NCBI GenBank assembly: GCA_964639285.1
Contig: CAZXCI010000001.1
Span: 285,757-337,069 of the forward strand
Source: an uncultured Candidatus Saccharibacteria bacterium
GTDB taxonomy: Bacteria; Patescibacteriota; Minisyncoccia; Phycocordibacterales; XYD1-FULL-46-19
DNA length: 51,313 bases
Direction: 5' to 3'
A program made the position numbers and the translations under genes. Positions 3,478 to 49,549 of the stretch are shown here, piece after piece (positions within the stretch are counted from its first letter, which is position 1; every line of letters begins with the position of its first letter). Under the pieces are notes generated by a model that was not told the DNA's origin, made no database searches, and was given only the letters and a program-made list of their open reading frames with translations.

Positions 3478-4185
3478 ATGAAACTCCTCTTTTTGGACAC
3501 GGAAACGACTGGTAATGATGTAGCTAAAGATCGACTTTGCCAGATTTGCTATAAAACTGGAGATAAAATCAAAACCGCCTACTTCAAACCTCCAGTTCCC
3601 ATCTCCACAAAATCCTCAAGTATCACCCATATTACCAACAAAATGGTGGGAAATAAGCCACCTTTTGAAGGGAGCCTCGAGCAAAAAGATCTCCGCGAGC
3701 TACTCAAGAACCATGTATTAGTTGCTCATAATGCCAAGTTCGATATCGCAATTCTCGAAAATGATAACGTGGGTGTCCCTCAATACATCTGCACTCTTCG
3801 TATTGCTCGTCATCTAGACGAGAACGCCGTCATCCCCGAATATAATCTACAATTCTTGCGCTATTACTTAGACCTCGAGATTGAAGGTCTAGCTCATGAT
3901 GCTTGCGGTGACGTCTTAGTGACCGAAGCCATCTTCAATCGACAACTTCAAAAATTCTTAGAAAAAGGAATGAGCGAGACTGAGGCGGTTGAAGAAATGA
4001 TAAAAATCTCAAGCCAACCCTCCCTTTTCAAAAAAATCCCATTTGGTAAGCACAAAGATAAAACCTTAGAAGAAATCGCTAAGACTGACCGAGGTTATCT
4101 CGAATGGCTATACAAACAAAAACTCGAAGACGGCGAAGAAGATGAAGATTGGCTCTTCACGCTTAAACATTATTTAGGAAAGTAA
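3478..4185 (+). CDS. DEDDh 3'-5' exonuclease (DnaQ/ExoX-like) with C-terminal DUF3820-like domain
   Basis: FLDTETTG, AHNAKFD, HDACGD motifs; C-terminal PFGKHK...YLEWL. Confidence 0.88.
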   Translation: MKLLFLDTETTGNDVAKDRLCQICYKTGDKIKTAYFKPPVPISTKSSSITHITNKMVGNKPPFEGSLEQKDLRELLKNHVLVAHNAKFDIAILENDNVGVPQYICTLRIARHLDENAVIPEYNLQFLRYYLDLEIEGLAHDACGDVLVTEAIFNRQLQKFLEKGMSETEAVEEMIKISSQPSLFKKIPFGKHKDKTLEEIAKTDRGYLEWLYKQKLEDGEEDEDWLFTLKHYLGK

Positions 4186-4205
4186 AAAACCACCAACGAA
4201 CTTAC

Positions 4206-4291
4206 AAAAATCACGAGTAAGCTTCTAAAAAGTCCTCGGATCTTCTCGCTACGCTCGGCCAGACATTTTTATAAGCTTACTCGTGATTTTT
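4206..4291. repeat. Perfect 19-bp inverted repeat (4206-4224 / 4273-4291) forming a long hairpin between convergent genes
   Basis: aaaaatcacgagtaagctt ... aagcttactcgtgattttt, extended inward by taaaaagtc/gacattttta; MITE-like or bidirectional terminator. Confidence 0.8.
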
Positions 4292-6122
4292 AGTTCACTC
4301 CAGGTTTGAAAGTTGTGCGTTTACTACGTGAACGTTCAGTCTCGGTAAGAAGGGCTTTACGCAAGCGAACGGACTTTGGCGTAATTTCAAGATATTCATC
4401 GTCAGCAATAATTTCAAGTCCTCGTTCAATGGTAATGACAAACGGTGGTGCCAACATCACCTTGTCATCCGTCCCGGCTGCCCGCATATTGGTAAGTTGC
4501 TTGCTTTTAATCGGATTAACAGGCATTTCTTCGCCCTTAGAGGTGTTACCAATAACCTGTCCTTCATAGACTTCATTGCCAGGCGCCACATAGAGTGTCC
4601 CCCGTGTCTGGAGATTATCTAGAGCATAGGCCAGAACTTTGCCAGTGATCATCGAAATCATCGAACCATATTGCGTCTTCTTAATTTCTCCAGTAAAAGG
4701 ACGAAAACCGATAACACGAGAAGACATTATTCCCTCACCCTTGGTATCAATTATAAATTGGTTACGATAGCCTAAGAGGCCCCGCGTTGGCCCTTCGAAG
4801 ATTAAACGCACGGTCGAAGAACTATGATGGATAGGTCGGAGGCAAGTCATAATCGCTCCCCGCTGACCAAGACGATCAATGATCGCACCCTGAAATTCGC
4901 TCGGGGTATCAATAGTCACTTCTTCAAACGGTTCAACTCTCTCCCCCGCCTCTTCCTTAACAATAACATGAGGCTGAGAAACACTAAGTTCGTAACCCTC
5001 GCGACGCATATTCTCAAGAAGAATGGCGATATGAAGTTCTCCTCGGCCAAAAACTTGATATTTGTCGTTAGAAGAGAAATCAACCTTGAGCCCGACATTA
5101 ACTTCGAGCTCGCGCTCAAGACGTTCACGGATCTGACGGCTAGTAACATACTTCCCCTCCCGGCCGGCAAAAGGTGAATCATTGACCATAAAATTGAGAG
5201 AGATGGTCGGTTCGTCAATCTGGATAGCCGGCAATAATTCACTCTCCGCATCGGCACAGATCGTCTCCCCAATATAAATCTCCGGAATACCAGCAATCAT
5301 CACAATGTCGCCAGACACAGCCTCCTGAACTTCTTCCCGGTCAAGACCTCGGAAGGTATAGAGCTTGGTAATTTTGCCCGTGTAATCAGGCGCTCCTAAT
5401 TTCTTAACAACGACCGCATCTCCCGACTTAACCACCCCCTCGTAAACACGGCAAATCGCCAAGCGTCCCAAATAATTATCGTAGGCAAGGTTGAAAGGTT
5501 GGGCCCGGAAGGGAACATCTATCTTAGCTGTGACCGGAGGAATTTTTTCTAAAATTATGTCAAGAAGAGGAAAAATGTTTTCGCTCTTATCATCGAGATT
5601 CAACTTGGCCATCCCGTCACGACCAATAGCATAGACAACTTTGAAATTCATTTGATCTTCGGTCGCACCAAGATCCATGAAAAGTTCTAAGACTTCCTCC
5701 TCAGCCCGATGAGGATCAGCCGCCGGTTTATCAATTTTGTTAATAACAACAATCGGTTTGAGGCCAAGTTCAAGAGATTTCTTAAGAACAAAACGCGTCT
5801 GGGGCATTGGGCCCTCTTGGGCATCAACCACCAAGACGACGTCATCAACCGAGCGCAAAACCCGCTCAACTTCAGAACCAAAGTCGGCATGACCCGGAGT
5901 ATCGACAAGATTGATCTTCGTCGGGGCTCGACCTGAACCAGCCAAAGGATAGAAAAGAGAGGCATTTTTAGAATAAATAGTAATCCCTCGCTCTTGCTCT
6001 AGAGCATTGGTATCCATACTGAAGCCTTCGGGCACCATCCCCGTCTGACGCAACATGGCGTCGGTCAAAGTTGTCTTACCGTGGTCCACGTGAGCGATAA
6101 TTGCAATATTACGTATTTCCAT
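4290..6122 (-). CDS. typA: Translational GTPase TypA/BipA
   Basis: [34 protein letters not shown]-terminal TPKSVRLRK. Confidence 0.97.
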
Positions 6123-15519: not shown

Positions 15520-15601
15520 ATTATTTGATCAGCGATAGGGTTGGACGGATACAATTTTTGTTGTATTATTACATTAACAATTTAATAAGAAGTAGCCTAA
15601 A

Positions 15602-15765
15602 CCAGTAAGCAATTTCTGGCATGGCGAATAAGACCAACCAAGGCAAAAAACTCCTCGTCAGAGTTTGCCTTGGTTGGCCGTACCCCGAAAGGGGCACGTG
15701 CAGTCGAAAGACTGCGTTCTGGCGGGGAGCTTTTTGTTCCCAAATATTGTATGACCAACCAAGGC
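15602..15765 (+). promoter_or_regulatory. Structured leader / candidate cis-regulatory RNA of the UDG-like gene
   Basis: Long hairpin 15634-15677, two GAAA tetraloop hairpins (15683-15694, 15700-15715), hairpin 15725-15741, 13-nt direct repeat 15632-15644 = 15753-15765. Confidence 0.55.
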
Positions 15766-43891: not shown

Positions 43892-43973
43892 GCCGGAGTG
43901 ATGAAATTGGTAAACATGCACGACTCAAAATCGTGTGCCGCAAGGTTTGTGGGTTCAAGTCCCACCTCCGGCA
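43892..43973 (+). tRNA. tRNA-Leu (anticodon CAA), long variable arm, CCA not encoded
   Basis: Acceptor GCCGGAG/CTCCGGC, anticodon stem CACGA/TCGTG with loop CT-CAA-AA, T-arm GTGGGTTCAAGTCCCAC. Confidence 0.95.
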
Positions 43974-44554
43974 CTTTCAAAAAATATTCCCAAAAAGAGA
44001 ATATTGCATATCTCGTAGGTCTATCATTGGGTGATGGCAATTTATCTAACCCGAACGGACGAGCAGTGAGATTGCGTATCACTTGTGACAAAAAGTACCC
44101 CGAATTAACAAGGAGGATAATTTTGTTACTTCAAGGCTTGTTTCCTAAAAATAAGATTGGTGTGATAAAACGAAATGATTCTTGTTTAGATATTAGTTGC
44201 TATTCTAATAAGCTGGAGGGGATGTTGGGATGGAAGGCAAAAAATGGTTCAAAAATTAAGCAAAAAGTTGCCATCCCTTCTTGGATTAAAAAGGATGTAA
44301 ATTATATTAAACCATGTCTTAGGGGTTTGATTGAAACTGACGGTTCCATCTATCAAGACCATAAATATTTAATGGTAAATTTTGTCACAGTTATCCCGAA
44401 TTTAGCTAGCGACTTTGTTTTGTTGGTTCAAAAACTTGGCTATACTTGCAACACCAAAATTAATCAACCCAAAATCGGCCTGGCCAAATATACAATTCGT
44501 ATCTCACGAAAAACAGAGGATTTTATAAAACTAATCGGCATTGACAAGAATTGA
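43901..44554 (+). CDS. Two-motif LAGLIDADG homing endonuclease; start codons lie inside tRNA-Leu
   Basis: AYLVGLSLGDG and CLRGLIETDG motifs; true start uncertain. Confidence 0.82.
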   Translation: MKLVNMHDSKSCAARFVGSSPTSGTFKKYSQKENIAYLVGLSLGDGNLSNPNGRAVRLRITCDKKYPELTRRIILLLQGLFPKNKIGVIKRNDSCLDISCYSNKLEGMLGWKAKNGSKIKQKVAIPSWIKKDVNYIKPCLRGLIETDGSIYQDHKYLMVNFVTVIPNLASDFVLLVQKLGYTCNTKINQPKIGLAKYTIRISRKTEDFIKLIGIDKN

Positions 44555-44771
44555 TGCCTACAGACACGCAGGTCCAAAAAAAATTAAACCCTCTCCCATT
44601 TGACAGCTGAGGCAAAGACGTTTAGTTCTTGGCTGTGTTGCTCTGGTGTCGCCCGGATAGTGGCAAATCTCTCTTGGCCAGGAGTCCAAGTGGAAGTATT
44701 AATGTCCTCAAGAAAATTATTAATCTTTGAATTTTTCTTACCTTGAATTATAAATGTGAAAAATTCCTGAA

Positions 44772-44808
44772 CCGGATATGCCGTGTTGTGCGATGCCCGC
44801 ATTTGCCC
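44772..44808 (-). other. Half attC-like site (R''/L'' side only) and distal inverted arm of cassette 3
   Basis: Minus strand GCACAAC-ACGG-CATATCCGG; 44785-44808 is inverted relative to 45449-45472 (19/24). Confidence 0.55.
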
Positions 44809-44844
44809 GCCCTTGTTAATGGCACGAATGGATGCCCTGAAATC

Positions 44845-45423
44845 CTATTGCAAAATCTTTTCCAACAATTCAGGAAACTCCTCGGTTTTCATATCTCCCA
44901 AGCAATAATGCCCTCGCCCTGACAGTTCAACAATCTCGCCACCAAGCACCTCATGAAAAATTTTTAAACTTTTTTTGCCGTCATCTTCCTCGTCATCGGC
45001 GGTGAATATCACTATTTGATTGATTCTATCTTTAATTGTTGGGTCAATCGGATAAGTGTAAAAATCCACATCTGCGCCATTTCTTTTTTCTTGCGGAATT
45101 TTCCAAGGCGCGACTAAAAAAAGTTTAAAAATTTTGGTCTTAGTCTCACCAAGCCAGCGAACCAAGAAAGCGCAACCGCAACTATGTCCTACCAAAATCG
45201 TGTTTTCATTAACAGCATATTTTTCAAATTCAGCTTTGAATTTTTCATAATCAGGTTGCCAGGGTGAGGGCATGAGAGGAGTTTCCGTCTCAATATTTTT
45301 TGCAATAAGATTTCTTTTTGTCCACGGAATCCAGTGTTTATCATAAGTTCTTGTTTCTGGATTCATCGCTTTTTCAGCATCAGAGGGGCATCCATGGATT
45401 ATTATACAGTTTTTCATTGTCAT
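44845..45423 (-). CDS. RBBP9/YdeN family alpha/beta hydrolase (cassette 3)
   Basis: IIHG, VGHSCG nucleophile elbow, LVAPW, DDE, RGH. Confidence 0.9.
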   Translation of the reverse strand: MTMKNCIIIHGCPSDAEKAMNPETRTYDKHWIPWTKRNLIAKNIETETPLMPSPWQPDYEKFKAEFEKYAVNENTILVGHSCGCAFLVRWLGETKTKIFKLFLVAPWKIPQEKRNGADVDFYTYPIDPTIKDRINQIVIFTADDEEDDGKKSLKIFHEVLGGEIVELSGRGHYCLGDMKTEEFPELLEKILQ

Positions 45424-45465
45424 ATGGTTAAATGTTATTTTAGCACTAGGGCAAATGCGGATTTC

Positions 45466-45559
45466 TCACATCGTTAGGGATATGAGAAGTTGCGACCGAA
45501 GGGAGCAATTTGGGTGGAGAAGTCTGCAAGACTTCGTAACCTCATATCCCTTGTTATAT
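45466..45559 (-). other. attC-like recombination site 2 (94 bp)
   Basis: Minus strand ATATAAC-AA-GGGATATGAG ... CTCATATCCC-TAAC-GATGTGA, with two internal hairpins. Confidence 0.72.
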
Positions 45560-45646
45560 TCCCCGAAGGGCTGAAATTTAGTGCAACGTCCCGAAGGGAA
45601 ATTTCAGAGTTGTCGTGTCTAAAATAAAATTGTAGTCGGATACACA

Positions 45647-46684
45647 TTAATCTTCAAATATTTTTTCAATCAATTTAAATTCTTTTTTATGGCAATCAAA
45701 CTCGACTTTTATTCCTAATGGCAAAATCCATTGAGGGTCTGTATGTCCAAAATCCATATTCGTTATAATCGGAAGACTTGAATTGTGAAATTCTGTATTA
45801 ACCACATTGAGAACATTTTCGTTTAAACTTTTCTTTTCATCTTCAGAATAGTCCCTTGGTCTTCCGATGAGCAATGCGGATATTTTGTCAAACACCCCTT
45901 GCATTCCATAGTTTCGTAACATCCATTTGACTTGGTCTGGAGATGGCTTGTCTTCAGATGTTTCTAAGAAAAGGATTTTGCCATTCCAAAAATCATCATT
46001 AGACCAATATTTTGTGCTTTTCATAAATTCAAGAACTTCAATACAGCCACCAAATAATTCTCCTTGAACTTTTGAACTGCCCTGCAAAATATTCCAACCT
46101 GTGTTTTTTGACATTGGTTTTACTTGTCCAACATTGGACTTGTCACCCCAATCTAAATATCCCTCTGCGTAAGAATCATATGGTTTGTATTCATAATTTG
46201 CAGGATTTTCAAATAGAATTGTTTTGATATGCTCTTGAAAATTTGTACCTAATGCATCCCATTGAGAAAATCCTGCCATGATTGCAGGACCATGTAGAGT
46301 GACAAGTCCTAATTGATTAAAGTATGTCAAAAGAGTGGTTGTATCAGAATATCCAATAATGATTTTTGGGGTTTTTCGAATTATTTCTGCATTTAGAAAA
46401 GGCATTATTCTTACGGAATCATCTCCGCCTATTGATACAAAAATCGCTTTAACTTCTTCATCAGCAAAAGCATCATTTATGTCTTTGGCTCTAAATTCTG
46501 GATTTTTGTAAAGATAATCTGCGTCTTTTCTTGCGGAGGGATATTCTTTAATTTTAAGACCTAAATTTTCAAGTGTCTTAATGCCTGATTCATAAATATG
46601 AGGAAAAACACTTGGGCCTCCCCACGATGGAGATACGACTGCAATGGTATCTCCTTTTTGTAATTTTTTTGGTTTGATTGCCAT
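45647..46684 (-). CDS. S66 peptidase (LD-carboxypeptidase/MccF-like) (cassette 2)
   Basis: GDTIAVVSPS, IGGDDS, IGYSDTT, LFLETSE, DFGHTDP. Confidence 0.92.
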   Translation of the reverse strand: MAIKPKKLQKGDTIAVVSPSWGGPSVFPHIYESGIKTLENLGLKIKEYPSARKDADYLYKNPEFRAKDINDAFADEEVKAIFVSIGGDDSVRIMPFLNAEIIRKTPKIIIGYSDTTTLLTYFNQLGLVTLHGPAIMAGFSQWDALGTNFQEHIKTILFENPANYEYKPYDSYAEGYLDWGDKSNVGQVKPMSKNTGWNILQGSSKVQGELFGGCIEVLEFMKSTKYWSNDDFWNGKILFLETSEDKPSPDQVKWMLRNYGMQGVFDKISALLIGRPRDYSEDEKKSLNENVLNVVNTEFHNSSLPIITNMDFGHTDPQWILPLGIKVEFDCHKKEFKLIEKIFED

Positions 46685-46758
46685 ACTATTTTGATGAATT
46701 GATTGATTTATATAATTTGTGCACCCGACTACTCCTAATTAATTTACACGACAATTGA

Positions 46759-46908
46759 ATATAACGTTTCTGAATATGAGAAGTTTTTGCCCGCCTCCTT
46801 ATTATATTTAAAAAGAAGAAAAGGGCAAAAATTTGGGTAAAAAATGAAATTCAAGTCCAGAATCATATAAATGTGAATTTCATTTTTTCCTCATATTCGG
46901 TGTTGTGC
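46759..46908 (-). other. attC-like recombination site 1 (150 bp)
   Basis: Minus strand GCACAAC-ACC-GAATATGAG ... CTCATATTC-AGAAAC-GTTATAT; internal hairpins 46784-46831 and 46839-46888. Confidence 0.78.
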
Positions 46909-47032
46909 GATGTAAATTTTTTATCTCGTTGTTTATTGAGCTAATCTTTATGCTAATAATAGAAAATTTGATTTTTTGTTTTTAAAAAATGGAAGAGTGG
47001 CAGGGGTGAATTCCATTTTTTAAAAACTCCCC

Positions 47033-47659
47033 TTAGTTACCGTCTTTTTGTCGAAAGTAATCTTCTCTCTGTTGAATCAACCTCTTTGCCTCAGTTTTGC
47101 CGAATTCAGTAATAAACTTAGGAATTCTTGTCTCGAGCATTGCCTTCATGAATTTTTTATTTGACACGGCATCATATGCTGGTTTACCAGCGCTAACCTG
47201 TAAAGCGCTTAACATATCGGCCTCCATTAAAACTAACTCGTCAGTATCTTTAATTTCAAACTTTTTATCATGAACTGCCACAAGGTGAATGCAGCGATTT
47301 TTTTGCGAATCAGTCAAAAACGAAAAGAAATCGTCTTGCAATAAAGCTGCTATTTTCTTCGCACCCAATTCCATATGCAATTGTTTGGCATTTTCTACAA
47401 TTTCAAAATTCATAACTTGGCTCTCTTTGAATATGTCAGAATAACCCCAATCGTGGGCATAAGCTGCGATTACCAAAATATTTCTATCGAGATTAAACTG
47501 GGGATTATGATCTATAATCTGTTTAATCCAACTAATCACCTCCAGCGTGTGTACCTTATCAAAACCACCACGACTTTTTTCTAAATCAGGCAATATTTTT
47601 TCTTTCAGATACTCTTCTATCTTATTTAACTCCATATTCATAAAAATTAAAAACAACAT
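47033..47659 (-). CDS. HD-domain protein (cassette 1)
   Basis: H...AHDWG...H...AD pattern; GAGG SD before ATG 47659 (alternative start 47635). Confidence 0.8.
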   Translation of the reverse strand: MLFLIFMNMELNKIEEYLKEKILPDLEKSRGGFDKVHTLEVISWIKQIIDHNPQFNLDRNILVIAAYAHDWGYSDIFKESQVMNFEIVENAKQLHMELGAKKIAALLQDDFFSFLTDSQKNRCIHLVAVHDKKFEIKDTDELVLMEADMLSALQVSAGKPAYDAVSNKKFMKAMLETRIPKFITEFGKTEAKRLIQQREDYFRQKDGN

Positions 47660-47729
47660 TAAACCCCTCACTATAAAATAAAAATCAAAATTTCTTCGTT
47701 GTTTGATGCGCCGAACTTTGATTTGCCAC

Positions 47730-47772
47730 CGAGATAAAAAATTTATTTCGCACAACTCGTTTCTATACGAAT
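47730..47772 (-). other. attI-like junction at the start of the cassette array
   Basis: Minus strand TCGTATAGAAACGA-GTTGTGC; 47730-47756 is inverted relative to 46902-46928 (25/27). Confidence 0.6.
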
Positions 47773-47872
47773 TAATTTATGATATAATACTTAAAATGGT
47801 GTTTTATGCGAATATCAAATCAAGCCTTCACTTTTGATTCTTTGGTTAATTATACCAAATAAAACATATAAT

Positions 47873-48685
47873 ATGCAATTATTCCTCCAAAAGATGGAAA
47901 TTGAACTTAAAATCAGGAATTATAGCCCCAGAACACTCGAGGCCTATTTGGCTTGCATGAAGGATTATTTTGAATATAAACAAATAAATCTAGATAAATT
48001 AGATCAGGATAATATCCGTAGTTATCTGCTGCAGAAGCAAGGCAAAAACTACTCACCCCAGACTATAAATCTCTATCTAAACGCCATTAAATTCTTTTAC
48101 CATGATATAATTAGGTCGATAGAGCCGATTAACGTCAGATTTGCCAAAAGAAATAAGAAGCTTCCAGTGGTTTTAAGTCGGACAGAAATCCAAAAGTTGT
48201 TGTCAGTGATTAAAAATACTAAACATCAATTATTGCTGTCCCTATCTTATGGCGCCGGTTTGCGTGTAAGCGAAGCGGTTGGCTTGAGATTCAAAGATTT
48301 GAATTTAGATGAATTGACTATCCACTTGAAGCAGGCGAAGGGAAAGAAGGATCGCCTGACTTTGATTCCGGAAAAGTTAGTCGATGATTTGCGCAATATC
48401 ATTGCTGGCAAGTCGGGTGACGACTATGTTTTTGCCAGCGAACGAGGAGGCAAATTGACGGAACGCACTGCCCAAAAAGTCTTTGAGAATGCCCTAAAAA
48501 AAGCAGGGATTAAAAAAGACGCCACCTTCCATAGCTTGCGCCATAGTTTTGCCACGCATTTGCTGGAAAACGGGACAGATGTGCGTTATGTGCAGGAATT
48601 GCTGGGCCATGCCAATATCCGAACGACGCAGATTTATACGCACGTTACTAATCCGGCAATTAGAAATATTAAAAGTCCTCTCTAG
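47873..48685 (+). CDS. Tyrosine recombinase with N-terminal SAM-like domain, integron-integrase-like but lacking the IntI insertion
   Basis: RNYSPRT, LPVVLS, GLRVSE, KGKKDR, HSLRHSFATHLLE, LLGH, TQIYTHV; 270 aa; divergent from the array. Confidence 0.92.
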   Translation: MQLFLQKMEIELKIRNYSPRTLEAYLACMKDYFEYKQINLDKLDQDNIRSYLLQKQGKNYSPQTINLYLNAIKFFYHDIIRSIEPINVRFAKRNKKLPVVLSRTEIQKLLSVIKNTKHQLLLSLSYGAGLRVSEAVGLRFKDLNLDELTIHLKQAKGKKDRLTLIPEKLVDDLRNIIAGKSGDDYVFASERGGKLTERTAQKVFENALKKAGIKKDATFHSLRHSFATHLLENGTDVRYVQELLGHANIRTTQIYTHVTNPAIRNIKSPL

Positions 48686-48688
48686 GCG

Positions 48689-49549
48689 ATGAAAAAGAAC
48701 CAAACTAAACCCAAAATCTATGTTATCGTCGGGCCAACCGCCAGTGGCAAGACGGCTTATTCGATCAAGCTAGCCAAAAAAGTAAAAGGTGAGATTATTA
48801 GTGCTGATTCACGCCAGGTTTACAAAGGTTTAGATATCGGCAGTGGCAAAGTGACAAAGAAAGAGATGGCCGGTATTCCCCACCACCTTCTCGATATCGC
48901 CAACCCGAAGAAAGTCTTCACCGTCGCCGACTTTAAAAAACTAGCTGAGAAAAAGATTAGAGAAATATTAGATCGAGGTAAAACACCAATAATTGTCGGC
49001 GGTACCGGTTTCTATATTCAAGCAATTGTTGATGATCTCATTTTGCCAGAGGTCCCACCTGATAAAAAACTACGAGCAGAATTAAAAAAACTCACGACCG
49101 CAAAACTTTTTAATTTGCTGAAGAAACTCGATCCAGCCCGAGCCAAGACAATAGATAGCCAAAATCCCGTGCGTCTAATTAGGGCAATTGAAATTGCTCA
49201 GGTCATGGGTAAAGTCCCTGAGTCTGGACTTCATGATCCACAATATAACTTTGAAGTTATTGGGATTAAGATTCCCCAAGAAAAATTAAATACGAAAATT
49301 CACGAAAGACTGGCCAAACGAATGAAAAAAGGACTCATCGGTGAAGTGAAAAAATTGCATGAGAATGGCCTAAGTTGGAAACGAATGGAGGAATTAGGTC
49401 TCGAGTATCGTTATCTTGGGCGCTTCTTACAAAATAAAATCACTAAACAAGAGATGCTCACCCAACTAGAAAGAGAGATTATTAAATATTCTAAACGCCA
49501 AATGACCTGGTTCAAAAAAGACCAGAGGATTAAGTGGCGAGAAATTTAG
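48689..49549 (+). CDS. miaA: tRNA dimethylallyltransferase
   Basis: GPTASGKT, ISADSRQVYK, PHHLLD, VGGTGFY, YSKRQMTWF. Confidence 0.97.
   Translation: MKKNQTKPKIYVIVGPTASGKTAYSIKLAKKVKGEIISADSRQVYKGLDIGSGKVTKKEMAGIPHHLLDIANPKKVFTVADFKKLAEKKIREILDRGKTPIIVGGTGFYIQAIVDDLILPEVPPDKKLRAELKKLTTAKLFNLLKKLDPARAKTIDSQNPVRLIRAIEIAQVMGKVPESGLHDPQYNFEVIGIKIPQEKLNTKIHERLAKRMKKGLIGEVKKLHENGLSWKRMEELGLEYRYLGRFLQNKITKQEMLTQLEREIIKYSKRQMTWFKKDQRIKWREI

Follow-up and report, generated by a model that had tools for sequence, protein, structure and literature searches.

Among described systems, two kinds of integron come closest: sedentary chromosomal ones, exemplified by IntIA/VCR of the Vibrio cholerae superintegron, and those reported from archaea (Ghaly et al. 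2022, PMC9668308). In these, the integrase faces away from attI and from a same-strand array of cassettes, which are mostly promoter-less and hold one or two genes. Their sites combine RYYYAAC...GTTRRRY outer boxes with an inner stem conserved in structure, and crossover takes place at G|TT, so that a cassette's opening bases are the complement of its own R'' box. Close relatives differ in their cassettes, and within chromosomal arrays the sites resemble one another. The I2 domain of IntI has been reported as necessary for activity (Messier & Roy 2001, as cited in PMC9668308). IntegronFinder assigns attC sites without an integron integrase to the classes CALIN (clusters) and SALIN (single sites). 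Among other tyrosine recombinase systems, archaeal XerA and bacterial XerC/D, XerH and XerS are housekeeping enzymes of dimer resolution at one dif site, and the plasmid-borne pdif modules of Acinetobacter are discrete gene modules found in various contexts and bounded by 28-bp double-stranded XerC/D sites in alternating orientation, with no dedicated recombinase.

The integron features listed above recur in the window (the whole stretch of 51,313 nt that was analyzed), which comes from a 0.71-Mb genome (708,803 bases). The features are as follows.

43892-43974, plus strand: tRNA-Leu(CAA), distal boundary (tRNA search)
to 44554 (boundary region 43892..44554), plus strand: LAGLIDADG-type ORF after tRNA-Leu (PF14528 match)
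44729..44795, minus strand: attC-type site 3, 5' half only (identity to intact sites in L063 and L077)
44729..45471, minus strand: cassette 3, YdeN/RBBP9-type serine hydrolase gene (ORF 44845..45423; PF06821, Ser_hydrolase, match)
45466..45559, minus strand: attC-type site 2 (covariance-model match 45458-45567, 66.3 bits)
45472..46764, minus strand: cassette 2, Peptidase_S66 (LD-carboxypeptidase) gene (ORF 45647..46684; PF02016 and PF17676 matches)
46759..46908, minus strand: attC-type site 1 (covariance-model match 46751-46916, 48.1 bits)
46765..47755, minus strand: cassette 1, HD-domain gene (ORF 47033..47641; PF01966 match)
47744..47780, minus strand: attI-like insertion site (motif upstream of the recombinase in relatives)
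47784..47812, minus strand: candidate Pc-like outward promoter, TTCGCA, 17 nt, TATTAT (consensus scan; directed into the array)
47873..48685, plus strand: tyrosine recombinase, 270 aa (PF00589 and PF13495 matches)
48689..49549, plus strand: miaA, proximal chromosomal flank (PF01715 match)

The recombinase points away from the attI-like site, and beyond that site lie the HD, S66 and YdeN-type cassettes. A sequence-only reading had described this arrangement of three minus-strand genes divergent from a 270-aa recombinase, which coordinates and Pfam matches confirm, and its attI-like GTTGTGC junction is indeed present (47756->47750, minus strand). It had begun the feature at 44772; the locus is real, but extends down to about 44729. 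The attC-like site that it had placed after each gene holds for two complete sites; the third lacks its 3' half, and the second carries GAT in place of GTT as its R' triplet. The Pc-like promoter is weakly supported and remains an inference only, because matches to the promoter consensus are no more common here than in shuffles. A 72-aa ORF at 44584..44802 was rejected as a gene, being merely site 3 in translation.

In the attI-like site a conserved left half, TTCGTATAGAAACGA, precedes G|TTGTGC; the crossover point falls between 47756 and 47755, and cassette-derived GAAAT comes next. In 11 relatives the motif TTCGYATAGAAACNAG|TT precedes the recombinase start by 91-121 nt, with the 4 nt after GTT varying among most of them. 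In its own genome it occurs once, at the attI position, and a looser match to the search pattern yielded one more, on C2, unlike the site. Cassette 1 runs from TTGTGCGAAAT to its own attC plus G, and its first 30 nt are 90% complementary (27/30) to the 30 nt ending in its R'' box, forming inverted repeat I1 (47727-47756 and 46902-46931). Site 1 consists of R'' GCACAAC (46908->46902), L'' GAATATGAG, L' CTCATATTC, the spacer AGAAAC and R' G|TTATAT (46765->46759), has a three-way junction with a CCCAAAT motif in its interior, and folds as single-stranded DNA at -25.5 kcal/mol (z = -6.2 versus shuffles). Cassette 2 begins with TTATATTC, complementary to its own R'' GAATATAAC; the complementary start/R'' pairs are GTTGTGC/GCACAAC and GTTATATTC/GAATATAAC. 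Site 2 (fold z = -2.5 versus shuffles) comprises R'' ATATAAC (45559->45553), L'' GGATATGAG, CCCAAAT, L' CTCATATCC, the spacer CTAAC and R' G|ATGTGA (45472->45466), its triplet mutated from the conserved GTT, and cassette 3 correspondingly starts with ATGTGA where TTGTGC is expected. What remains of site 3 is CATC-GCACAAC-ACGGCATATCCGG and the first hairpin (R''-L''-hairpin), broken off in the loop without the CCCAAAT box, L' and R'; it is identical over 61 nt to the intact site in L063 (100%) and 97% identical to that in L077, diverging at 44729.

A covariance model trained on sites from relatives matches only sites 1 and 2 in the whole genome, and these are more than chance. Exact GTTGTGCGA has only three copies in the 51-kb window, all within the feature. 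To judge by these sequences, the array in its own genome is partly decayed and partly fossil: only the HD cassette has an intact crossover site on either side; the S66 cassette terminates in the GAT-mutated site, and the YdeN cassette in a site that has lost its 3' half. With two of the three window sites damaged, it is uncertain whether the array is active in this genome today.

The recombinase resembles Xer proteins in length and domain layout (PF13495/PF02899 plus PF00589). It narrowly passes the NCBIfam 'XerA/integron integrase' model NF040815 (score 227, cut-off 220) and falls below both TIGR02249 (222 bits, cut-off 265, the match split into two stretches) and NF011946 (141 bits, cut-off 435). 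Its top PDB match, both by sequence and by fold, is VchIntIA (2a3v), the nearest solved relative, in which chain residues 183-241 lie opposite its residues 179-194, a deficit of ~43 aa that is the IntI-defining insertion (I2 helix). No extra helix is present at residues 177-197 of its AF2 model (pLDDT 88). The catalytic residues R131, K156, H220, R223, H246 and Y255 show no variation in the family alignment. The earlier observations of a short stretch between KGKKDR and HSLRH and of a protein that is not a canonical IntI are thus upheld; its 'different integrase clade' needs amending. The enzyme is insertion-less and falls outside XerA and XerC/D, but short recombinases and canonical IntI (four sequences only were included) form one clade with support 99/98. 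Because of this joint clade, with XerA and XerC/D outside, the short recombinases are inferred to be a sister or stem lineage of IntI that is without the insertion, and not an unrelated Xer.

What the protein lacks coincides exactly with the IntI-specific region, as would be expected if this were a canonical integron whose intI had suffered an internal deletion and become a pseudogene. That explanation is effectively refuted: at E <= 1e-20 the database holds more than 7,700 matching proteins, nearly all of the best 120 of these are 266-293 aa long, the short forms make up their own well-supported clades in CPR, DPANN and Bacteroidota, and dN/dS against the 96%-identical copy in L143 is 0.15, from which purifying selection on the gene is inferred.

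Across a phylum sample of 401 genomes, the recombinase occurs in 41, the sites in 58 and both in 34 (odds ratio 68, Fisher p = 7e-27). Every site match in the vicinity of a recombinase (31/31) is located upstream of it and on the other strand, and those around YdeN cassettes lie on the gene strand (59/59). More distant recombinase loci (31-41% identical; mostly Bacillota, Dehalococcoidia and Bacteroidota) gave no site matches. This association bears on whether the enzyme could be a XerA-type chromosome-dimer resolvase, with the hairpins being terminators or REP-like RNA or DNA structures between accessory genes. The narrow pass of NF040815 fits such a role, as do the location of the hairpins downstream of ORFs and their conserved G.U-type pairs, which would suit RNA too. 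We nevertheless regard it as highly improbable. The recombinase is absent from 8/8 congeners and missing in about 90% of the phylum sample, a patchy distribution therefore unsuited to a housekeeping resolvase, and the same genome has a separate XerC/D-like gene (L002 1015..2040). Among recombinase loci, sites are found only beside this kind of recombinase, and terminators would leave both the start/R'' complementarity and the identical cassettes at G|TT unexplained. Arrays of hairpin sites also differ from the one dif site of Xer systems.

Sequence comparison of 74 sites indicates conservation of structure: 94.8% of cells are paired, versus 74% in shuffles and 17-42% with the partners slid, and double-sided changes number 234, versus 77 in shuffles. 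The outer boxes follow RYYYAAC/GTTRRRY (R' triplet GTT in 63, ATT in 9, GAT in 2), and the 12-bp L (inner) stem is variable in sequence, with compensatory changes preserving 10/12 pairs. Once folded, the R and L boxes are split by an asymmetric loop of 1-3 nt versus 4-6 nt, and a three-way junction carries an unpaired CCCAWAT motif; neither the split nor the junction is a feature of classical attC. A G.T pair is conserved as well. With the CATC and GAAAT flanks the R stem can reach 30 bp, again unlike classical attC, and the two classical extrahelical bases have no obvious counterparts. Cassette limits fall at G|TT both across the family and in the window, which follows the integron rule and supports the original reading of a cassette platform. 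In 24/45 cassettes R'' matches, without a single mispair, the complement of the 6 nt that follow the preceding site's G (controls: own R' 6/74; random pairs 6%).

Cassette content varies among near-identical platforms, and identical cassettes are found in diverged ones. In L143, where the recombinase is 96% identical in amino acids and likewise adjoins miaA, the array runs from a 236-aa gene through an MTase plus HinfI restriction-modification cassette to S66. The S66 cassettes of the two genomes show 0 differences in 1185 nt (100% DNA identity), whereas the recombinase genes differ at 49/810 nt (dS about 0.2); the homology starts exactly at G|TTATATTC, and the preceding cassette is not the same. 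The fixed gene order that would have told against a cassette platform was not seen: G020, G021, L143 and L144 hold other cassettes beside 64-96% identical recombinases (L143 sharing S66), those of G020 and G021 in other chromosomal contexts. Many arrays contain copies of the YdeN cassette (>= 89% amino acid identity) with intact sites or attI on their flanks, and the one in the window is a copy of this widely circulating cassette.

The YdeN copies vary in the 4 nt after GTT, and the same ORF plus R'' is fused to different L''-loop-L' bodies. This pattern suggests exchange points on either side of the R box, which one-strand, one-cleavage attC recombination does not predict. The same platform might instead use Xer/Cre-like chemistry on a double-stranded core made up of the R box and its flanks, with both strands exchanged at either end of a 6-7 bp overlap and the hairpin having another purpose or being a by-product of circularization. 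The YdeN copies look as if exchanged on both sides of the 7-mer, the enzyme is of Xer-like length, passes NF040815 and is without I2, attI is a conserved double-stranded sequence, and complementarity is perfect at only the 24/45 junctions. Imperfect junctions can also be explained by undetected sites or mutation, however, and a purely double-stranded core does not require compensatory changes in the L stem; arms 50-200 nt apart, the loop asymmetry and the G.T pair are single-strand features. We consider double-strand chemistry unlikely, though not negligible.

The chromosomal setting raises a further question. The LAGLIDADG-type ORF, array and recombinase form a 4.7-kb block, missing between tRNA-Leu and miaA in congeners G004 and G008; because tRNA-Leu directly adjoins miaA there, the block is an insertion or a deletion relative to these two. 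The miaA start lies 3 nt past the recombinase stop codon; in L144, L145, G020 and G021 the recombinase has other neighbors. A tRNA adjoins the array end here, as it also does in G021 and L175. An ordinary integrative island beside tRNA-Leu would fit the absence of the block in two congeners and the tRNA at the array end, the recombinase being its integrase, the genes cargo and the hairpins unrelated repeats. No tRNA 3'-end repeat was found flanking the block, however, and relatives vary cassette by cassette at G|TT and not by whole island. The recombinase is closest to IntI, not to phage-type integrases. Congener G006 has attI and one cassette at the same locus with the recombinase gone, as in CALIN or SALIN. 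An island of this kind therefore has only a slim chance of being correct.

We conclude that the locus is quite likely a chromosomal integron-type gene-cassette platform whose integrase belongs to a large IntI-related lineage without the IntI insertion, recombination itself being untested. The recombinase would bind attI, a conserved sequence, in double-stranded form and the attC-type sites as folded hairpins, and would cleave at G|TT; cassettes would be excised as circles by attC x attC or attI x attC recombination and inserted at attI. The asymmetric loop and G.T pair may stand in place of the extrahelical bases read by the I2 domain in classical integrons. Against the integron-type reading, the I2 domain reported as needed by IntI is missing, no recombination event was directly observed, site sequence is better conserved from genus to genus than in mobile-integron attC, the extrahelical bases lack obvious counterparts, and the YdeN copies show exchange points on both sides of the R box. 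Unlike CALIN and SALIN, the locus has a recombinase, tied to the sites and failing the intI-specific profile, and where standard tools pick up such loci at all, they would most likely class them as attC clusters lacking intI. Like pdif modules, the cassettes are bounded by tyrosine-recombinase sites, but these are 70-215-nt hairpins in a single orientation with a dedicated recombinase and attI adjoining.

A literature search found no paper describing an insertion-less integrase with such a cassette array. The hosts also differ from those of the closest systems: they are CPR bacteria, and relatives are found among DPANN archaea and Bacteroidota. On the integron-type reading, a tiny CPR/Patescibacteria genome would carry an integron-style gene-capture array without the recombinase domain considered essential, which bears on how integrons function and on their origin.

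The array lies in a genome of CPR/Patescibacteria type (0.71 Mb, 29 contigs), whose family includes one record named 'Candidatus Vogelbacteria'. The features of the locus are as follows.

43892-43974, plus strand: tRNA-Leu(CAA)
43975-44554, plus strand: ORF with a LAGLIDADG_3 domain, directly 3' of tRNA-Leu
44845..45423, minus strand: YdeN/RBBP9-type serine hydrolase
45647..46684, minus strand: S66 LD-carboxypeptidase
47033..47641, minus strand: HD-domain protein
47873..48685, plus strand: tyrosine recombinase, 270 aa
Beginning 3 nt past the recombinase stop codon: miaA

The sequence-only reading had described single-gene cassettes on the minus strand that follow an attI-like GTTGTGC junction and diverge from a recombinase, and this layout was borne out for the HD, S66 and YdeN genes, with the recombinase gene pointing away from attI and the co-oriented array. 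On the minus strand, the recombinase-proximal intergenic region reads TTCGTATAGAAACGA-G|TTGTGC-GAAAT (G at 47756). The HD unit starts with TTGTGCGAAAT and ends with ...ACATC-GCACAAC-ACC-GAATATGAG...CTCATATTC-AGAAAC-G|TTATAT; the R''-like box of this terminal site is exactly complementary to the first seven bases of the unit, and the complementarity extends to 27 of 30 nt (inverted repeat I1). The S66 unit starts with TTATATTC and is likewise self-complementary with its own site, GAATATAAC-AAG-GGATATGAG...CTCATATCC-CTAAC-G|ATGTGA, while the YdeN unit start, ATGTGAGAAATCCGCATTTGCCC, pairs with ...GGGCAAATGCGGGCATC-GCACAAC at the unit end (I8). Integron cassettes recombine at G|TT, which puts the six final bases of a cassette's own R' box at the start of its linear form, and the start-to-R'' self-complementarity of the window units is thus a hallmark of integron cassettes. 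The 30-nt inverted repeat around the HD gene was also considered as an invertible segment or IS-like element; this was dropped, as the cassettes of all arrays show the same complementarity.

Three attC-like sites had been proposed. Two are complete and fold as single strands into a stem with a three-way junction (z = -2.5 and -6.2), but the third retains only its 5' part; this stretch matches intact sites at two related loci (L063, L077) with 100% identity over 61 nt of their 5' part and then ends in the loop at 44729. No Rfam family matches the hairpin sites. The upstream junction of the YdeN cassette is G|ATGTGA in the window and G|TTGTGC in other copies. With half of its site lost and its junction mutated, the YdeN cassette of the window is a decayed copy. 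In the terminal site of the S66 cassette, GTT has become GAT, and only the HD cassette has intact crossover sites on both sides (attI and attC1). The window array may be active for one cassette at most, or silent.

Between tRNA-Leu and the truncated last attC lie the LAGLIDADG_3 ORF, which is missing from the congeners examined, and 175 nt without assignment (44555-44728). The ORF or the adjoining segment may be an insertion that truncated the array end. A 72-aa ORF at 44584..44802 was ruled out as a gene because its sole similarity is to translated attC sites. A promoter and terminator scan of 44500-48000 gave no excess over shuffles, so the candidate for a Pc promoter is only a guess. Unrelated to the array, the Rfam LOOT RNA (RF03000) was found at window positions 15594-15715 on the plus strand, with 88.4 bits against a gathering score of 46.4. 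The genome also has a second, chromosomal YdeN-type hydrolase (C1:250546-251031), which shares 28% identity with the cassette-borne enzyme.

When 18 sites from many genomes were aligned, the consensus consisted of an R-box helix and a 12-bp L-box helix; compensatory changes were seen in 9 pairs. The covariance model built from aligned sites (R1) was used as the site detector. It replaced a loose hairpin scanner of our own (AAC, 9-mer, loop, reverse complement, GTT) that was unspecific, with 492 matches in the genome versus 373-456 in shuffles. Within its own genome, the model found only the two window sites. Across 74 aligned sites, 94.8% of stem cells were paired, versus 74% in shuffles and 17-42% with the partners slid, and double-sided changes numbered 234 versus 77 in shuffles; the 12-bp L stem alone contained 10 covarying pairs. 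R'' ends in AAC in 72 of the 74 sites and R' begins with GTT in 63. The definition of attC sites as imperfect R''-L''...L'-R' palindromes with RYYYAAC/GTTRRRY boxes, conserved in structure over sequence, is met. Sequence motifs (a TAT core, CCCAWAT and CATC/GAAAT) are nevertheless unusually conserved, and the design differs from classical attC in several respects. The R stem is often lengthened to 20-30 bp via the conserved CATC/GAAAT flanks with a 2x2 mismatch, the unpaired spacer is asymmetric (1-3 versus 4-6 nt), the 12-bp L stem has the conserved TAT core and a conserved terminal G.T pair, and two inner hairpins flank the unpaired CCCAWAT. For the two classical extrahelical bases, the hairpin sites showed no clear equivalent.

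The cassette boundary expected of integrons, at G|TT and with the first 6 nt complementary to the cassette's own R'', was found beyond the window. Among 45 cassettes with detected sites at both ends, 24 had an R'' that was fully complementary to the six bases following the preceding site's G, as compared to 6/74 for the own in-array R' and 6% for random pairs. Both testable cassettes of the window matched at 6/6. Sites and recombinase also co-occur: in a phylum sample of 401 genomes, with thresholds of E <= 1e-50 for the recombinase and E <= 1e-5 for the sites, 41 genomes had the recombinase, 58 had sites and 34 had both (odds ratio 68, Fisher p = 7e-27). Several of the seven genomes with a recombinase and without sites have contigs that end just upstream of the recombinase.

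Orientation was assessed in 80 loci from one-genome-per-species records. All 31 model hits lay upstream of the recombinase and on the opposite strand. In 11 relatives, attI was conserved 91-121 nt from the recombinase start codon; the integron arrangement of an integrase gene reading away from attI and a co-oriented array is met. CPR-type recombinases, 52-79% identical to the query, adjoin 29 of these hits, the exceptions being one Woesearchaeota locus and one weak hit in a Balneolaceae locus. Three records with a CPR-type recombinase and hits are labelled 'uncultured Gammaproteobacteria' or 'uncultured bacterium'. The remaining, more distant recombinase loci of the 80-locus set (31-41% identical; mostly Bacillota, Dehalococcoidia and Bacteroidota) gave no site hits. 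About half of the CPR contigs break less than 600 nt upstream of the recombinase. Contigs that end a few hundred bases upstream, on the array side, include L064, L066, L067, L073, L078, L087, L047, L051, L058, L059 and L061, a pattern suggesting that repeated sites or cassette variation among strains broke the assemblies.

Comparison of related loci, proposed earlier as a check for variable cassettes, did reveal differing contents. Two other genera of the family (genomes G020 and G021) carry the recombinase at 77% and 64% identity in different chromosomal contexts. Their loci have the same attI motif, followed by divergent arrays of unrelated small genes with sites of the same design; one cassette lacks an ORF, and the start-to-R'' rule is kept. 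A public contig from SRR8925766, L143, encodes a recombinase with 96% protein identity that adjoins miaA as in the window, and its array holds a 236-aa gene, then a methyltransferase and HinfI-type restriction-modification cassette, and, last, the S66 cassette. Over 1185 nt this S66 cassette and its counterpart in the window are identical, with homology beginning exactly at G|TTATATTC, and the site preceding it comes from a different cassette than in the window. The recombinase genes themselves differ at 49/810 positions (dS ∼0.2, dN/dS 0.15). As the S66 cassettes show 0 differences while the recombinase genes have diverged, the cassette was exchanged long after the platforms diverged. By sequence comparison, this shows recent exchange of the S66 cassette despite the decayed array.

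The YdeN-type cassette is widespread, with copies of at least 89% protein identity in more than 12 metagenome arrays. These copies have intact sites immediately upstream and downstream, and in one related locus (L165) the cassette lies directly at attI. At loci with YdeN cassettes, 59/59 model hits were on the gene strand. Integrons are expected to show variable content in related platforms and cassettes common to unrelated ones, and both were observed. With the HD and S66 proteins as queries, tblastn against the related loci collected first yielded no further copies.

Several recurrent elements were noted alongside the cassettes. A ∼60-nt perfect-stem hairpin (GTTTTTAAAAAATGGAA...TTCCATTTTTTAAAAAC; window 46964-47030, minus strand) lies just past the HD stop codon and recurs at 77-88% identity behind unrelated genes, after the HinfI gene in L143 and in L065, L069 and L054; it may represent a terminator-like module common to these arrays, placed between ORF and attC. 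A ∼130-nt non-coding leader at the start of the L143 restriction-modification cassette (∼3826-3959) recurs at up to 97% identity at other cassette starts in at least 10 arrays (L043, L044, L050, L068, L074, L077 and others), and may be a mobile promoter or leader module. Ends of arrays, or lone cassettes, also seem to adjoin tRNA genes repeatedly. On one metagenome contig (L174) the YdeN cassette lies right after an apparent tRNA 3' end with no flanking attC, and on another (L175) its attC is truncated beside a tRNA gene, like that of the window.

Within the genus, RelA, ParB, tRNA-Leu, miaA and tRNA-Trp are syntenic, and the recombinase was not found in any of the eight same-genus genomes. 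In G004 and G008, tRNA-Leu lies ∼70 nt from miaA, while G001 and G002 have other genes between the two. Another congener, G006, retains a remnant platform at this position (L160 7283-7780), with a conserved attI (TTTTGCATAGAAACGAG|TTATACGAAAT), no recombinase ORF, a 61-aa membrane-like ORF and a degenerate attC (21.7 bits). These loci imply that the platform sat at the tRNA-Leu/miaA site in the genus and was eroded or lost in some members. The platform is a sedentary chromosomal element with moving cassettes, patchily distributed.

The recombinase contains PF13495 and PF00589 domains, and its catalytic R, K, HxxR, H and Y residues are invariant in a 30-sequence alignment. Its short Xer-like stretch in place of the IntI insertion, noted at the outset, was verified. 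The nearest solved sequence, VchIntIA (2a3v), is matched in two pieces; query residues 179-194 lie opposite chain residues 183-241, so that 59 chain residues are skipped opposite 16 query residues, a deficit of ∼43 aa. The AF2 model (pLDDT 88) has no helix at the I2 position and none between H167-177 and H197-210. The best fold match of the model is again 2a3v (E = 8e-18, TM 0.76), above XerA. The additional domain of IntI (about 35-45 aa around patch III, with the I2 helix) is absent, and the claim that the protein is not a canonical IntI held when the IntI profiles were run: TIGR02249 scored 222.3 in two stretches against a cut-off of 265, and NF011946 scored 141 against 435. Database matches at E <= 1e-20 number at least 7,762 proteins. 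Nearly all of the best 120 have a length of 266-293 aa, and pipelines differ in labelling them XerD or 'integron integrase'; NCBI names close homologues 'site-specific tyrosine recombinase/integron integrase'.

In a maximum-likelihood tree, short forms from CPR (14), Bacteroidota (9, one of them from an Aeromonas plasmid) and DPANN (6) and canonical IntI (4) formed one clade with 99/98 support. The canonical set comprised IntI1, one 76% relative, IntI2 and the aligned parts of VchIntIA; it was limited to four because the IntI1 homologue search returned solely IntI1-like proteins (at least 71% identity). Few IntI were thus sampled, and the branching order within the clade is unresolved. The tree is discordant with CPR taxonomy, which fits horizontal spread. 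An Aeromonas veronii IncA plasmid of clinical multiresistance type (L148; NZ_CP083462.1) carries, at 4001-4753 and directly upstream of blaVEB-3, a short IntI-like recombinase fragment that has 43% identity to the query and groups with the Bacteroidota short forms.

Could the enzyme instead be a XerA-type dimer resolvase? Its score for NCBIfam NF040815, 'XerA/integron integrase', is narrowly above the cut-off (227.2 bits versus 220). A housekeeping resolvase should be near-universal, but the recombinase occurs in 0/8 congeners and 41/401 genomes of the phylum, and its own genome has a separate XerC/D-like gene. That protein falls outside the clade of IntI and the short forms, as do two solved XerA, E. 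coli XerD and other Xer proteins. The pdif-type Xer modules have short double-stranded sites in alternating orientation, whereas the sites of every array here share one orientation and are hairpins of 70-215 nt. IntI-driven integrons share the architecture, but the recombinase lies outside the IntI-defined family, with neither the defining domain nor the profile cut-offs met. The initial observation stands with three corrections, and its interpretation as an integron-like cassette platform is supported; that the platform works like an integron is likewise supported, with biochemical and read-level proof missing.

The data establish the architecture, the structural conservation of the sites, the crossover position, the co-occurrence and the exchange of cassettes, while the recombination steps are inferred by analogy with integrons. 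The recombinase would synapse either two folded sites or one folded attC-type site and double-stranded attI. Cleavage at G|TT would release cassettes as circles to be inserted at attI, although neither excision nor integration has been demonstrated. In an excised HD cassette circle, the attC1 end (...CATATTCAGAAACG) would join TTGTGCGAAATAAATTT, and an attI x attC1 deletion would join ...GTATAGAAACGAG to TTATATTCAATTGTCG. The two strands are unlike in their spacer asymmetry and G.T pair, and these features could, as speculation, supply the strand choice that I2 and the extrahelical bases give in IntI systems. Two features of the YdeN copies do not fit this simple model: the four bases after GTT vary, and the same ORF and R'' occur on several different site bodies, as if exchange also took place at AAC|AC. 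The misfit could stem from homologous recombination among arrays, from the other strand being used occasionally, or from Xer-like double-strand exchange over an overlap of 6-7 nt.

Taken jointly, these results may describe a whole lineage of working integrons whose integrase never had or has lost I2, widespread in CPR (∼10% of sampled genomes) and related to forms in DPANN archaea and Bacteroidota. The choice of strand and site would then rest on another design of the folded site: the asymmetric spacer, the G.T pair, CCCAWAT in a three-way junction and, possibly, an exchange that can take place on either side of the R box. We consider the case for this reading to be evenly balanced.

The defining feature of IntI integrases is an additional domain, which reads extrahelical bases in folded attC and has been reported to be required for activity, and integron detection tools rely on this domain. 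In the literature, no description was found of integrons or attC arrays with such an integrase in CPR/Patescibacteria, nor of XerA-type integrases with attC sites. A study of archaeal integrons reported 539 attC sites but only 6 IntI genes, and stressed that its IntIs carry the additional domain (PMC9668308). In a 2026 permafrost study, attC sites could not be detected on 97% of the contigs that carried 'integron-type' recombinases, and novel attC sites were proposed as one explanation (PMC13323075). Both observations fit an undetected class like that of the window. If the reading is true, many orphan attC arrays and orphan 'integron-type' recombinases in metagenomes would be explained, and, if the lineage branches below canonical IntI, the Xer-to-integron transition would become visible and the 'defining' IntI domain would be a later addition. 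A widespread cassette system of the same architecture that lacks the domain makes the minimal requirements for hairpin-site recombination testable and bears on the origin of integrons from Xer-like enzymes. It further suggests that a large reservoir of cassettes in ultra-small bacteria and archaea, with restriction-modification, cell-wall and hydrolase genes among its contents, escapes integron surveys.
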